Notes under the pieces: generated by a model
What the model was told of the DNA's origin: nothing
Database searches by the model: none
Seen by the model: only the letters and a program-made list of their open reading frames with translations
Position numbers and translations under genes: made by a program
Assembly: GCF_003334815.1 (NCBI RefSeq)
Contig: NZ_QOWO01000054.1
Source: Escherichia coli
Lineage (GTDB): Bacteria > Pseudomonadota > Gammaproteobacteria > Enterobacterales > Enterobacteriaceae
Strand: one strand, 5' to 3'
Length of the DNA stretch: 18,303 nt
Part shown: piece after piece, positions 15,236-18,303 of the stretch
Layout: each line of letters begins with the position of its first letter
How positions within the stretch are numbered: the first letter of the stretch is position 1

Positions 15236-15802
15236 ATGTTTATTGCATTCATTATTATTGTCATTCTTCTGGGCGGGTTTGTGCTCCTGCTCCGTCAGGC
15301 CGGTCGTGCAGCGCATCCACTTCTGCAGTCATTGCGGTCAAGGGGTATACGGCCTGGTGCAGCAGAGCTGTTGCTGTGCAGCAGGCCATCATTTGTCAGT
15401 GCCGGCCGGTTAATGACCGAACGGGAGCAGCGCTTTCTGCGCCGGCTGGACAGGGTGACAGATACCCGCCAGTGGCGGTTATGTCCGCAGGTTCGTGTGG
15501 CCGATATCGTCAGAGTGGCGCCCGACCGGAAGTCCGGCAGCCGTGAATGGTGGCAGTTATTTCGCCTGGTGTCACAGTGGCACTGCGATGTGGTTATCAC
15601 GGACCGTGCCGGGCGCATCATTGCAGCGGTTGAGCTGGACGACCGGTCTCATCAGGAACCGAAACGTCAGCGGCGTGACCTGCTGCTGGAAGAGGTGCTG
15701 AAACAGGCGGGTATCCCGCTGTTGCGTGGCGATAATGAACAGCAACTGGCGGCGCGTGTCAGGGCGCACCTTTGCGCACAGCGTCCGGAGGCCGCAGCAT
15801 GA
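15236..15802 (+). CDS. Membrane-anchored DUF2726-like protein (PD-(D/E)xK nuclease-fold superfamily), function unknown
   Basis: 188 aa from the ATG at 15236 with RBS GGGAGAGG. N-terminal hydrophobic helix MFIAFIIIVILLGGFVLLL, then a conserved core LCPQVRVADIV...WWQLFRLVSQWHCDVVITD...IAAVELDDRSH. Starts 17 nt after the traI stop and overlaps the traX start as ATGA. Paralogous to the ORF at 17931. The family name is from memory. Confidence 0.6.
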   Translation: MFIAFIIIVILLGGFVLLLRQAGRAAHPLLQSLRSRGIRPGAAELLLCSRPSFVSAGRLMTEREQRFLRRLDRVTDTRQWRLCPQVRVADIVRVAPDRKSGSREWWQLFRLVSQWHCDVVITDRAGRIIAAVELDDRSHQEPKRQRRDLLLEEVLKQAGIPLLRGDNEQQLAARVRAHLCAQRPEAAA

Positions 15803-16530
15803 ATCAGGGGAAATCCGTTGCTGTGCAACCTGTCAGGCCGGTCCTGAATTTCTCCGCGCTGCAGCGCGATGTCATCCGGATGGTGGCGTTTGTGGCGATG
15901 GTGGGGGACCACATAGCTACTGCCTTTCAGCTGGATATGCCCTTACTGAACATGGTCGGGCGCTGTGCTTTCCCCCTGTTTGTGCTGGTCTGTGGCTGCA
16001 ACATGGCGGGTAAAACCTTACGTCAGCACAGCCTGAACCGCCTGTGGCTGATGGCGCTTCTGGCCCAGCCGGGTTACTGGCTGGCCTTCCGGGATGTCGG
16101 TCTTGCGTGGTGGCAACTGAATATCCTGTTCACCTTTGCTGTTGTCATGCAGGTGGCTCTTTTCCTGCAGTCTGCTACTGCCCGTAATGGTGTTGCGGCC
16201 TTCACGGCACTGATGGGGTATATACCATTCAGTTCTGCCAGTTACGGCATCCCCGGTCTGCTGATGCTTGCCGGAGCGCTGCTGGTCTGGCAGGTCAGGG
16301 ACACGCTGCGTCCCGCCCTGTTTGCTGTCTGGCTGTTGCTGGTTGCCCTGCTTAATGCCCGACACGGTGATGTGATGATGTTTTCCGGCGTGATTCTGAC
16401 GCTGACGGTGCTGTTCTGTGTCCACGGGCTGGTACCGGCTTCCGGACGACGTCTGCAGGCAGGACGCTGGTTTGCGCCAGCGTATGCCATTCATCTGTTT
16501 TTTATTGGCTTTCTGGTCAGAGTTCTCTGA
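15799..16530 (+). CDS. traX: TraX, F-pilin N-acetylase (polytopic membrane protein)
   Basis: 243 aa from the ATG at 15799 with GGAGG upstream. Similar to F TraX (QRDVIRMVAFVAMVGDHIATAFQL vs F QRDIIKTVALVLMVLDHINLIFQL). The track ORF has a 9-codon upstream extension. Confidence 0.85.
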   Translation: MNQGKSVAVQPVRPVLNFSALQRDVIRMVAFVAMVGDHIATAFQLDMPLLNMVGRCAFPLFVLVCGCNMAGKTLRQHSLNRLWLMALLAQPGYWLAFRDVGLAWWQLNILFTFAVVMQVALFLQSATARNGVAAFTALMGYIPFSSASYGIPGLLMLAGALLVWQVRDTLRPALFAVWLLLVALLNARHGDVMMFSGVILTLTVLFCVHGLVPASGRRLQAGRWFAPAYAIHLFFIGFLVRVL

Positions 16531-16589
16531 CCGTTCCTGACTCCGATACAGTGGTCTGGTGCTTTAGTATTACTGAACAGCAAAAAAAT

Positions 16590-16614
16590 GCCTCCCTCAG
16601 AGATGAAGGGAGGC
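16590..16614 (-). terminator. Intrinsic terminator-like hairpin oriented for minus-strand transcription
   Basis: gcctccct-cagagatga-agggaggc, an 8-bp GC-rich stem with a 9-nt loop. A run of seven A precedes it on the plus strand, which is a U-run after the hairpin on the minus strand. No U-run follows on the plus strand. Confidence 0.4.
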
Positions 16615-16719
16615 GGAAGAATAAGGCTTGTCTGATGAAACAACTCCCATGCCCGTTGGAAGTCGGATTACGGTTATTTTTTAACATATTTAGCAGGCGG
16701 AATTAAAGAGGAGAGAGGA

Positions 16720-16932
16720 ATGAATGGATTCAGAAACAGTTCACGGAACGGTCAGGTCTGGCGTTACCAGCGTGCCGGCGGGCGGGCCGTTATTCTGGAG
16801 GTCAGTGGACGCTGGATGGAAGCGGCAGAAGCATGGCGACGGGCTGCCTGCATAGCTCCCCGGACAGACTGGCAGCAGTTTGCCCGGAAAAGGGCTGAAC
16901 ACTGCCACCGGCGCTGCCGGGGAAGGGTGTAA
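16720..16932 (+). CDS. Small basic W/R-rich protein, possibly an ANR-family-like regulator; identity uncertain
   Basis: 70 aa with a strong RBS (AGAGGAGAGAGG) before the ATG at 16720. Helix-like motif GRWMEAAEAWRRAA...DWQQFARKRAEHC. GC-rich relative to its AT-rich surroundings. Confidence 0.45.
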   Translation: MNGFRNSSRNGQVWRYQRAGGRAVILEVSGRWMEAAEAWRRAACIAPRTDWQQFARKRAEHCHRRCRGRV

Positions 16933-16941
16933 CGAAAAAAG

Positions 16942-16973
16942 CAGCCTTCATTACACCAGAAGTCAGAAGGCTG
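16942..16973 (-). terminator. Second terminator-like hairpin oriented for minus-strand transcription
   Basis: cagccttc-(16-nt loop)-gaaggctg with AAAAAA immediately upstream on the plus strand, which is a U-run after the hairpin on the minus strand. Sits right at the stop codon of the 70-aa ORF. Confidence 0.35.
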
Positions 16974-17076
16974 AAAGGAGTTTATGAGATTTGCTTTTTT
17001 TAATATCCGGTCGGGCAGTATGACCGGACAGTTCTGAGTAGCACAGAGTTTTTTCCGTATTAAGTCGTGATTTTAT

Positions 17077-17100
17077 ATTTTGTGATTTATTTCACAAAAT
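17077..17100. promoter_or_regulatory. Perfect CRP-type palindrome (TGTGA-N6-TCACA) upstream of the nuclease gene
   Basis: ATTTTGTGA-TTTATT-TCACAAAAT; both half-sites match the CRP consensus and the flanks are AT-rich and symmetric. Centred about 90 bp upstream of the nuc start codon. Confidence 0.4.
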
Positions 17101-17177
17101 AAGGTGTTATTCATTGTGTGCTGCAATGTTCAGGATGCCTGAAATACAGGTGCCATTTATCTGATATGGAGAATAAC

Positions 17178-17639
17178 ATGATGAAATATATTCCGCTGGT
17201 ATTATTTATCTTTTCATGGCCGGTATTGTCTGCAGATATTCATGGACGGGTTGTTCGTGTACTGGACGGTGATACCATCGAGGTAATGGACTCACGGAAG
17301 GCGGTGCGGATCAGGCTGGTAAATATTGATGCACCGGAAAAGAAACAGGATTATGGCCGGTGGTCAACAGACATGATGAAATCACTGGTCGCAGGAAAAA
17401 CGGTTACCGTCACATATTTTCAGCGAGATCGTTATGGTCGTATTCTCGGGCAGGTTTATGCACCAGACGGAATGAATATTAATCAGTTTATGGTTCGGGC
17501 CGGGGCTGCCTGGGTATATGAGCAGTACAACACAGATCCCGTGCTGCCTGTCCTTCAGAACGAAGCCAGACAACAAAAACGTGGGCTCTGGTCAGATGCT
17601 GATCCGGTTCCACCCTGGATATGGAGACACCGTAAATAA
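17178..17639 (+). CDS. nuc: Secreted thermonuclease (staphylococcal nuclease, SNase-fold family)
   Basis: 153 aa from the ATG at 17178 with RBS GGAGA. Signal peptide MMKYIPLVLFIFSWPVLSA; SNase motifs RLVNIDAPE, DRYGRILGQVY and GLW. The track ORF start at 17118 is an upstream extension. Confidence 0.85.
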   Translation: MMKYIPLVLFIFSWPVLSADIHGRVVRVLDGDTIEVMDSRKAVRIRLVNIDAPEKKQDYGRWSTDMMKSLVAGKTVTVTYFQRDRYGRILGQVYAPDGMNINQFMVRAGAAWVYEQYNTDPVLPVLQNEARQQKRGLWSDADPVPPWIWRHRK

Positions 17640-17684
17640 AGCGATGGCAATCTTATCATTCATCTGTTCTCAGCAGGAATAAAA

Positions 17685-17893
17685 ATGGCAAAAACAAAAC
17701 AGGAATGGCTGTATCAGTTACGGCGATGTTCATCAGTCAATACGCTGGAAAAATTATTCATAAAAACAGAGACAGTTTATCGAACAGTGAACGTGAATCA
17801 TTTAATTCAGCAGCAGACCACCGGTTAGCGGAGTTAATCACCGGAAAGTTATATGACAGGATACCAAAAGAGATATGGAAATATATAAGGTAA
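17685..17893 (+). pseudogene. hha: hha/ymoA/rmoA-family H-NS co-regulator gene, interrupted by a -1 frameshift in an A5 homopolymer
   Basis: Frame from the ATG at 17685 gives MAKTKQEWLYQLRRCSSVNTLEKLFIK (Hha N-terminus ...[20 protein letters not shown]). The -1 frame continues [42 protein letters not shown] (Hha ...[30 protein letters not shown]). The switch is at AAAAA 17762..17766; one extra A would restore a 69-aa ORF. Confidence 0.75.
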
Positions 17894-17930
17894 TAATTCA
17901 GCATAATTAATTGCCAGGAGCAGATAAATA

Positions 17931-18303
17931 ATGAAGTTGATTATTTTTATTCTCATTGTTCTGATTATTGCAGCGTTACTTATCCGGATTATCCTCAGAA
18001 GTGTAAATCAGCATTCTCCTTTGCTGATGCAATTGCATGCGGCAGGTATACGGACCGGTGATGCAGAGCGAATACTGTCCAGCGGTGAATACTGGCAACG
18101 TCAGAAGACGCTGCTGACAGAAAGGGAAGTCAGTTTTATGAAAGGACTGTTCAGAATTGTGGATATGAAGCGGTGGTATCTGTGTCCGCAGGTACGGGTC
18201 GCGGATATCGTCCAGCTGAACGGGAATATCCGGCCACGATCACGCCAGTGGTGGCAGTTATTCAGGATGGTGTCTCAGTGGCATGTTGATGTGGTTATCG
18301 TTG
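17931..18303 (+). CDS. Second DUF2726-like membrane-anchored protein, paralog of 15236..15802; 3' end outside the window
   Basis: ATG at 17931 with AGGAG upstream; open to the window end, so absent from the ORF track. N-terminal helix MKLIIFILIVLIIAALLIRIIL, then the same core as the first paralog: LCPQVRVADIV...WWQLFRMVSQWHVDVVI. Confidence 0.7.
   Translation, partial: MKLIIFILIVLIIAALLIRIILRSVNQHSPLLMQLHAAGIRTGDAERILSSGEYWQRQKTLLTEREVSFMKGLFRIVDMKRWYLCPQVRVADIVQLNGNIRPRSRQWWQLFRMVSQWHVDVVIV

Follow-up and report, generated by a model that had tools for sequence, protein, structure and literature searches.

At the end of an 18,303-nucleotide stretch of Escherichia coli DNA (contig NZ_QOWO01000054.1, hereafter the window), whose last 8 kb are the distal end of an F-type transfer operon, two related genes for helix-anchored DUF2726 proteins stand on either side of traX and a nuclease gene. 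The locus raises the question of what such proteins do, and whether their pairing has any part in it. We describe the identity, architecture, conservation, purifying selection and distribution of these proteins, and tentatively favour the reading, unproven as it is, that they may be stand-alone membrane-tethered cytoplasmic DNases that cut DNA on entry, in the manner of the defence protein SNIPE. The two-copy layout is incidental, and the interest of the locus lies in the function of a common gene and in its link to filamentous phages.

The first gene (copy 1; 15236..15802, plus strand) encodes a protein of 188 residues, assigned from its translation and from Pfam family PF10881 (DUF2726). The second (copy 2, plasmid 'yihA'; 17931..>18303, plus strand) is cut by the window end after its first 124 codons, and its full length is 228 residues in the E. 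coli plasmid CP099216 (IncFIA/IncFII, MOBF, MPF_F). Positions 15100..18303 are 97.1% identical to this plasmid, where the Prokaryotic Genome Annotation Pipeline (PGAP) marks the same genes, with 'DUF2726 domain-containing protein' appearing twice. An initial annotation, made from the window alone, had called these open reading frames (ORFs) paralogues, and both are indeed present and alignable at the protein level, with 53% identity (50/95 positions, E=4e-33, BLASTP). The motifs quoted there (LCPQVRVADI, WWQLFR.VSQWH.DVVI and DVVITD...VELDD) are found in the translations, and the shared N-terminal hydrophobic helix occurs exactly once in each protein. Family membership, likewise proposed, holds in a hidden Markov model (HMM) comparison: copy 1 matches PF10881 with E=1.9e-24 over most of the model (residues 58-179, model positions 3-123 of 126; 15407..15772, plus strand), copy 2 is 53% identical to it over the domain start, and P0120, a 228-residue homologue of copy 2 (~95% identical) within an alignment of 20 enterobacterial plasmid members (A1), carries a precomputed PF10881 match. 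A weaker match of copy 1 to REase_MTES_1575 (E=8.5e-5) is accompanied by no further Pfam domain.

Copy 1 starts 18 nt after the traI stop codon, with the Shine-Dalgarno-like GGAGAGG preceding its ATG, and its stop codon overlaps the traX start (ATGA), so that it is expressed within the tra operon. Against the Salmonella ortholog, the ratio of non-synonymous to synonymous substitution rates (dN/dS) comes to 0.127 for the whole gene and 0.075 for the domain, close to the 0.147 of traX; copy 1 is therefore a working gene. A promoter and terminator scan of 15000..18303 gave sites no commoner than in shuffled sequence and is uninformative on separate transcription of the two copies. Copy 2 differs at one residue, over the first 124 codons, from a gene annotated yihA in LC744439, and its neighbourhood (nuclease, hha-like, yihA, repA2) is that of R100-type plasmids; judged by sequence and gene order, it is the gene that R100-type IncFII plasmids carry as 'yihA'. 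The contrast in guanine-plus-cytosine (GC) fraction noted at the outset is also real, each copy matching its own neighbours (0.60 for copy 1 and 0.605 for traI; 0.47 for the copy 2 fragment and 0.476 for nuc).

DUF2726 has been placed in the PD-(D/E)xK superfamily, grouped with Vsr and DUF559 and with function unknown (PMC3424549; PMC3710099). The AlphaFold2 (AF2) model of copy 1 (predicted local distance difference test, pLDDT, 88.1; predicted template modelling score, pTM, 0.77) shows the alpha-beta-beta-beta-alpha-beta core that defines this fold and resembles solved nucleases, its best structural neighbours being I-Bth0305I, the DUF559-like NGO0050 and Vsr, with an extra WWxLF helix between strands 1 and 2 in the helix-anchored subfamily. 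A Foldseek search against the Protein Data Bank (PDB) gave no significant match for the model, and the AFDB50 matches are solely uncharacterised or misnamed DUF2726 proteins; a PDB sequence search gave chance matches only with the single protein (NDUFA13, E ~0.03) and none at E<=10 with a 40-sequence profile. Many polar residues are invariant in alignment A1, and nine charged or histidine residues (E64, R87, D90, H116, D118, E133, D135, H139 and D148) are invariant in 40 members at ~26% mean column identity, while the ExD..H motif recurs in 79 of 80 viral homologues. From this conservation and the order of secondary structure in the model, a putative catalytic core of copy 1 comprises D118 on strand 2, E133-L-D135-D136 on strand 3, and H139 (15587..15652, plus strand), all of them invariant or nearly so in the 40 members. 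The initial annotation had seen a PD-(D/E)xK-like segment here: the fold and D118 are borne out, but the canonical lysine motif is not, as strand 3 reads E133-L-D135 and is followed by invariant H139 and R144/R147. The protein would thus have a putative variant active site of the kind seen in Vsr-type members, and Vsr-type relatives without the canonical lysine are still active nucleases. On these grounds we infer that DUF2726 members may have catalytic DNase activity.

The predicted anchor of copy 1 is its N-terminal hydrophobic helix (residues 1-21; 15236..15298, plus strand), followed by an arginine-rich stretch; in the AF2 model the helix spans H2-24, and the Kyte-Doolittle mean over 19 residues of the N-terminal segment is 3.2 (3.22) in copy 1 and 3.45 in copy 2. 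No lysine or arginine is present in the three residues before the helix of copy 1, against five in the 22 residues after it, and across the family these residues number 22 on the N-terminal flank versus 274 on the C-terminal one, the C side being more positive in 61 of 65 proteins. Given this excess of positive charge on the C-terminal side of the helix, the positive-inside rule predicts an N-out/C-in topology with the DUF2726 domain facing the cytoplasm. A large subfamily usually combines the helix with DUF2726. It comprises the 6564 clusters that matched a profile at E<=0.001 among 1.84 billion representative proteins, and of the 85 full-length-looking representatives in the best 150, 64 carry one N-terminal hydrophobic helix, which is also seen in most distinct viral ORFs. 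The soluble part has an isoelectric point of 10.4-11.

The family is widespread on plasmids, with at least 5000 of the 72,556 PLSDB records carrying a member, and 4376 of the 5000 carriers listed are predicted to be conjugative. Within F-type transfer regions its members have three separate, independent sites: one between traI and traX (in the window and in plasmids of Salmonella, Citrobacter and E. coli), one between the gene of a secreted nuclease (nuc, or one of the phospholipase-D (PLD) family) and repA2, as yihA (E. coli, Shigella and Klebsiella plasmids), and one between traF and trbB, within the type IV secretion system (T4SS) assembly block of Serratia marcescens plasmids. Among 50,697 GenBank phage records, the one match is the filamentous Vibrio phage Vaf1 (Inoviridae). 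In the IMG/VR collection of 2.9 million contigs, 131 stretches encode a relative, and the Zot/pI morphogenesis ATPase is present in 73 of the best 80 by iterated HMM search, where all of the seven divergent Zot/pI matches from later iterations that were checked match the PHROG Zot-like family (7/7); most of these 80 contigs are 4-15 kb long. As the inovirus catalogue holds ~10,000 sequences (PMC6813254) against 2.9 million contigs, fewer than one inovirus would be expected among the 80 by chance. Two distinct representatives lie at the edge of integrated inovirus prophages and one in a mobile-element island. On the phage contigs the gene is opposite in strand to the morphogenesis genes in 56 of 73 cases and in some lies beside repressor-like genes, and the 80 viral loci have no conserved neighbour.

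In the scheme that we infer for topology, catalytic activity, substrate and biological role, each protein would be a single-pass inner-membrane protein of ~170-230 residues, its N-terminus held outside by the short helix and its basic, Vsr/DUF559-like PD-(D/E)xK domain facing the cytoplasm and acting as an active stand-alone DNase. The tether would keep the nuclease from the nucleoid and the resident plasmid, and the nuclease would cut DNA emerging at the cytoplasmic face of the inner membrane, whether the transferred strand of a rival plasmid or an injected phage genome, the outcome being exclusion or defence for the resident element. A role in DNA-entry control or exclusion had been suggested in the initial annotation, and the context assembled here makes it more plausible, short of proof. 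The module appears to stand alone, with no methyltransferase nearby and no conserved viral neighbour. Inovirus accessory genes gave superinfection exclusion experimentally (PMC6813254), and SNIPE provides a precedent: with its helix N-out and its nuclease in the cytoplasm, it cleaves phage DNA as this is injected, and once deprived of the helix it is toxic and attacks host DNA (bioRxiv 10.1101/2025.11.03.685801). SNIPE is likewise encoded by a single gene, and its N-out helix and cytoplasmic nuclease correspond to the topology predicted here; its tether is proposed to guard against self-damage, and it attacks DNA in passage across the inner membrane. However, the two are not homologous: SNIPE is much larger and combines DUF4041 with GIY-YIG, whereas the present proteins consist of ~190 residues with DUF2726 and no extra domain, and SNIPE is chromosomal defence cargo shown to act against lambda-like phages. 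The resemblance is one of working principle and not of membership.

Several points weigh against an entry nuclease. The canonical (D/E)xK lysine is replaced, so that catalytic activity cannot be assumed, and the topology is read from a single criterion, the positive-inside rule. No homologue turned up in the 61 kb of classical F that were compared (positions 50-88 kb left out), so F-type transfer and exclusion can do without the gene. Nor does the scheme explain how the element's own DNA, on its way out of the cell, would escape a non-specific DNase at the membrane. Cells with derepressed R100 or R1, plasmids of the yihA-bearing group, stay sensitive to F-specific filamentous phages, and this argues against a simple protection from Ff phages. 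The restriction of the family to filamentous phages, rather than prophages generally, might point instead to the biology of single-stranded DNA (ssDNA) elements. PADLOC-DB 2.0 has no family for copy 1, copy 2 or a 103-residue ORF found beside long forms of yihA at E<=0.01, and an NCBIfam scan likewise gave no family for any of the three. Finally, the literature on DUF2726, plasmid yihA and inovirus nuclease exclusion yielded no functional study, and with neither a functional paper nor a curated family found, the earlier statement that the family has no established function stands.

The same evidence can be read in other ways. The protein could be a nuclease or nickase serving the element's own ssDNA traffic, trimming, clearing or processing ssDNA at the F-type T4SS or the pI/pIV assembly site of filamentous phages, for example by removing stalled transfer intermediates or by helping establishment after entry. 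The family is tied to F-type conjugative plasmids and inoviruses, both of which pass ssDNA across the cell envelope; copy 1 lies directly after the relaxase gene and is translationally coupled to traX, the Serratia gene sits inside the T4SS assembly block, the nicking enzyme Vsr is among the closest structural relatives, and one relative directly follows an AddAB-like pair. We nevertheless regard such a role as unlikely, as classical F transfers efficiently with no homologue in the 61 kb tested, the position in the tra region varies and is outside the operon in R100-like plasmids, and the inovirus gene is mostly on the strand opposite to morphogenesis (56/73), in the accessory or regulatory part, as is typical of optional cargo. 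Rather less likely is a sequestered toxin, harmless when tethered and released or activated on stress, phage infection or plasmid loss, whose degradation of the chromosome would bring about abortive infection or addiction. SNIPE that lacks its helix cleaves the host's own DNA and is highly toxic, toxin-antitoxin genes are frequent cargo of both inoviruses and plasmids (PMC6813254), and the acidic 103-residue ORF that overlaps long yihA in Klebsiella IncFII(K) plasmids and CP099216 could be an inhibitor; yet copy 1 has no such partner, being followed by traX, the ORF is present neither in plasmids with the 196-residue yihA nor at any of the 80 viral loci, and neither PADLOC nor the toxin-antitoxin families gave a match.

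A third possibility, which we consider improbable, is that the domain is not a DNase in vivo and serves as a DNA- or protein-binding membrane anchor, or acts on RNA or another substrate. The replacement of the canonical lysine (E-L-D) and the weak similarity to solved nucleases speak for it, as does the existence of inactive PD-(D/E)xK folds such as the structural Sen15 subunit (PMC3424549). Against it stand the nine invariant charged or histidine residues at ~26% identity, three of them acidic and on the metal-site strands, the very low dN/dS of the domain and the activity of Vsr-type relatives that lack this lysine. The initial annotation implied a further reading, in which both paralogues, traX and the secreted nuclease form one DNA-entry-control cassette. 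A family member is repeatedly found beside a secreted nuclease, either a thermonuclease (SNase; E. coli IncFII) or a PLD/Nuc protein (Klebsiella and Salmonella), but an SNase gene is missing from the vicinity in copy-1-lineage plasmids, the inovirus homologues are not paired with a nuclease, and the layout itself is exceptional and arises from a backbone junction, as set out below, which makes such a cassette very improbable.

The complete 3.2-kb layout occurs in 2 of the 72,556 PLSDB records. Copy 1 is found at >=80% coverage in 219 records, where the order is traI-DUF2726-traX and then towards repA; three such plasmids that were inspected have neither yihA nor finO, and those of this lineage that were inspected have no SNase gene nearby. 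Copy 2 is found at the same coverage in more than 2100 records, with the order traI-traX-finO-...-ANR-like-endonuclease-hha-like-yihA-repA2 and with the gene named yihA in some. The two arrangements exclude each other in the five plasmids inspected, carriers of traI-DUF2726-traX having no yihA and carriers of yihA having no DUF2726 gene between traI and traX. More broadly, the 5000 records listed contain 5102 matching places, and two copies per plasmid are therefore rare. In a three-way alignment, the window follows the copy 1 lineage 5' of the start codon of an ANR-like gene and the R100-like lineage from inside that gene onward; this gene (near 16720) is common to both backbones, and the megablast matches of copy-1-lineage plasmids stop at query position 1827. 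A crossover between the backbones at the ANR-like gene is therefore likely on sequence comparison, and the pairing is a by-product of recombination between two F-like backbones carrying one copy each, not a designed two-gene system. The separate acquisition of the copies that had been proposed from their composition is borne out by this switch, each lineage bringing its own copy, whereas the bracketing of traX and the nuclease is not a conserved arrangement.

Other known systems delimit what these proteins might be. With the Vsr/DUF559 branch of PD-(D/E)xK they share the HMM match, the core topology of the model and the structural neighbours, and differ in the membrane helix, the WWxLF helix and the E-x-D with invariant histidine, no DUF2726 member having been characterised. 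TraS (entry exclusion) and TraT (surface exclusion) are, similarly, plasmid-encoded envelope proteins of the tra region that limit DNA entry; they are unrelated in sequence and domain, however, and classical F, where traS and traT adjoin traG and traD, has both but contains no DUF2726 member over the 61 kb compared. Neither TraS nor TraT is known to be a nuclease, and both block mating-pair function rather than cutting DNA. A type II restriction-modification system would have a cognate methyltransferase, and none is present, the neighbours being traI, traX, the ANR-like gene, SNase, the hha-like gene, the 103-residue ORF and repA2; the family is neither restriction-modification, nor a toxin-antitoxin pair, nor a PADLOC system.

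It is possible, if doubtful, that the family represents a new single-gene class of membrane-tethered entry nucleases, used by elements transmitted as ssDNA to eliminate the DNA of competitors at the inner membrane. Were this so, exclusion would gain a nucleolytic layer, the third after TraS and TraT, and the family would be a plasmid and inovirus counterpart of SNIPE on a different fold, extending self/non-self discrimination by membrane location to a new fold and to mobile elements. The family, as yihA and its paralogues, is present on at least 7% of sequenced plasmids and in many filamentous phages, and is shared almost exclusively between F-type conjugative plasmids and these phages; the phage link found here makes the hypothesis testable. 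Its carriers include IncF plasmids that spread extended-spectrum beta-lactamase (ESBL) and carbapenemase genes in E. coli, Klebsiella and Shigella, and if the protein does cut incoming DNA, it would influence the co-existence of plasmids and phages in clinical strains.

The genes themselves are already catalogued, DUF2726 in thousands of plasmid records and yihA as a label since early IncFII annotations, and their names are a source of confusion. Plasmid yihA collides with the chromosomal yihA (the EngB GTPase) and has been treated as a 'cell division GTPase' in at least one paper (PMC4794485), while in AFDB/UniProt one relative is misnamed 'Cell division GTP-binding protein' and another 'Superfamily I DNA and RNA helicases', the helicase name being apparently carried over from the neighbouring traI. 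The gene adjoining mcr-1/pap2 on the IncI2 plasmid pHNSHP45, considered as a relative, encodes a multi-helix membrane protein and not DUF2726. Three fusions considered as evidence of linkage, P0096 (DUF2726-PLD), P0078 (DUF2726 with the 103-residue ORF) and P0109 (with an insertion sequence, IS), were set aside as single-member clusters that look like deletions or frameshifts. Further single-member chimeras in public protein sets (including P0054 and P0139) are joined to TraA or the TraI N-terminus; such chimeric proteins are probably products of deletion, frameshift or assembly joining and not genuine fusions. On a metagenomic contig (L008, 2..6618), the gene of a distant helix-anchored DUF2726 protein starts 4 nt after the AddAB-like helicase-nuclease pair mentioned above, which suggests an operon with a DNA-end-processing machine.

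The acidic 103-residue ORF overlaps the stop codon of long-form yihA in CP099216 (locus L001, 9515..9823) and in a Klebsiella plasmid (L003, 5390..5698), the Klebsiella carriers being IncFII(K) plasmids. The E. coli and Klebsiella versions are 65% identical, have no Pfam match and match phrog_1372 (function unknown). The ORF follows neither copy 1 nor the common 196-residue yihA, and is also missing from the 80 viral loci; it was accordingly rejected as a general partner or inhibitor, and no conserved, linked small partner gene of the kind that marks a toxin-antitoxin or immunity pair was found.

Of the remaining genes of the window, all on the plus strand, traI (9924..15218), upstream of copy 1 in the same operon, is a 1764-residue relaxase/helicase ORF annotated as TraI in CP099216, and traX (15799..16530) encodes the pilin acetylase according to its sequence and the annotation of that plasmid. 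The ANR-family regulator ORF (16720..16932; 70 residues) matches NF033650 with 33.5 bits against a cutoff of 32. The thermonuclease (SNase) family gene (17178..17639), identified from its ORF, its annotation and SNase-type NCBIfam/PADLOC matches below equivalog cutoffs, has a signal-peptide-like N-terminus (MMKYIPLVLFIFSWPVLSA|D). The hha-like gene (17685..17893) is frameshifted, with ORFs in two frames in alignment to LC744439: a 1-base deletion near 17749 leaves five A where the intact 69-residue LC744439 gene has six, and CP099216 carries the identical deletion in the A run, which could mean that the gene is a pseudogene, that the homopolymer was misread in sequencing, or that slippage serves as a switch. 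The hha of the 'nuc/hha block' proposed earlier is accordingly not intact in the window.

No finO is present between traX and the nuclease gene (16530..17180), unlike in typical IncFII plasmids (traX-finO-...), and the next gene after traX is the ANR-family ORF; transfer might be derepressed, although finO could sit elsewhere on the plasmid. A 9-bp GC-rich hairpin lies at 16590..16614, ~60 nt past the traX stop codon, with a T-run on the minus strand only, and such sites are no commoner than in shuffled sequence. Finally, the secreted nucleases near family members in IncF lineages belong to two unrelated families, SNase in E. coli (window 17178..17639) and phospholipase-D/Nuc in Klebsiella and Salmonella (5802..6353 in L003, and 7762..8040 in a further locus, L004), which may reflect non-homologous replacement.

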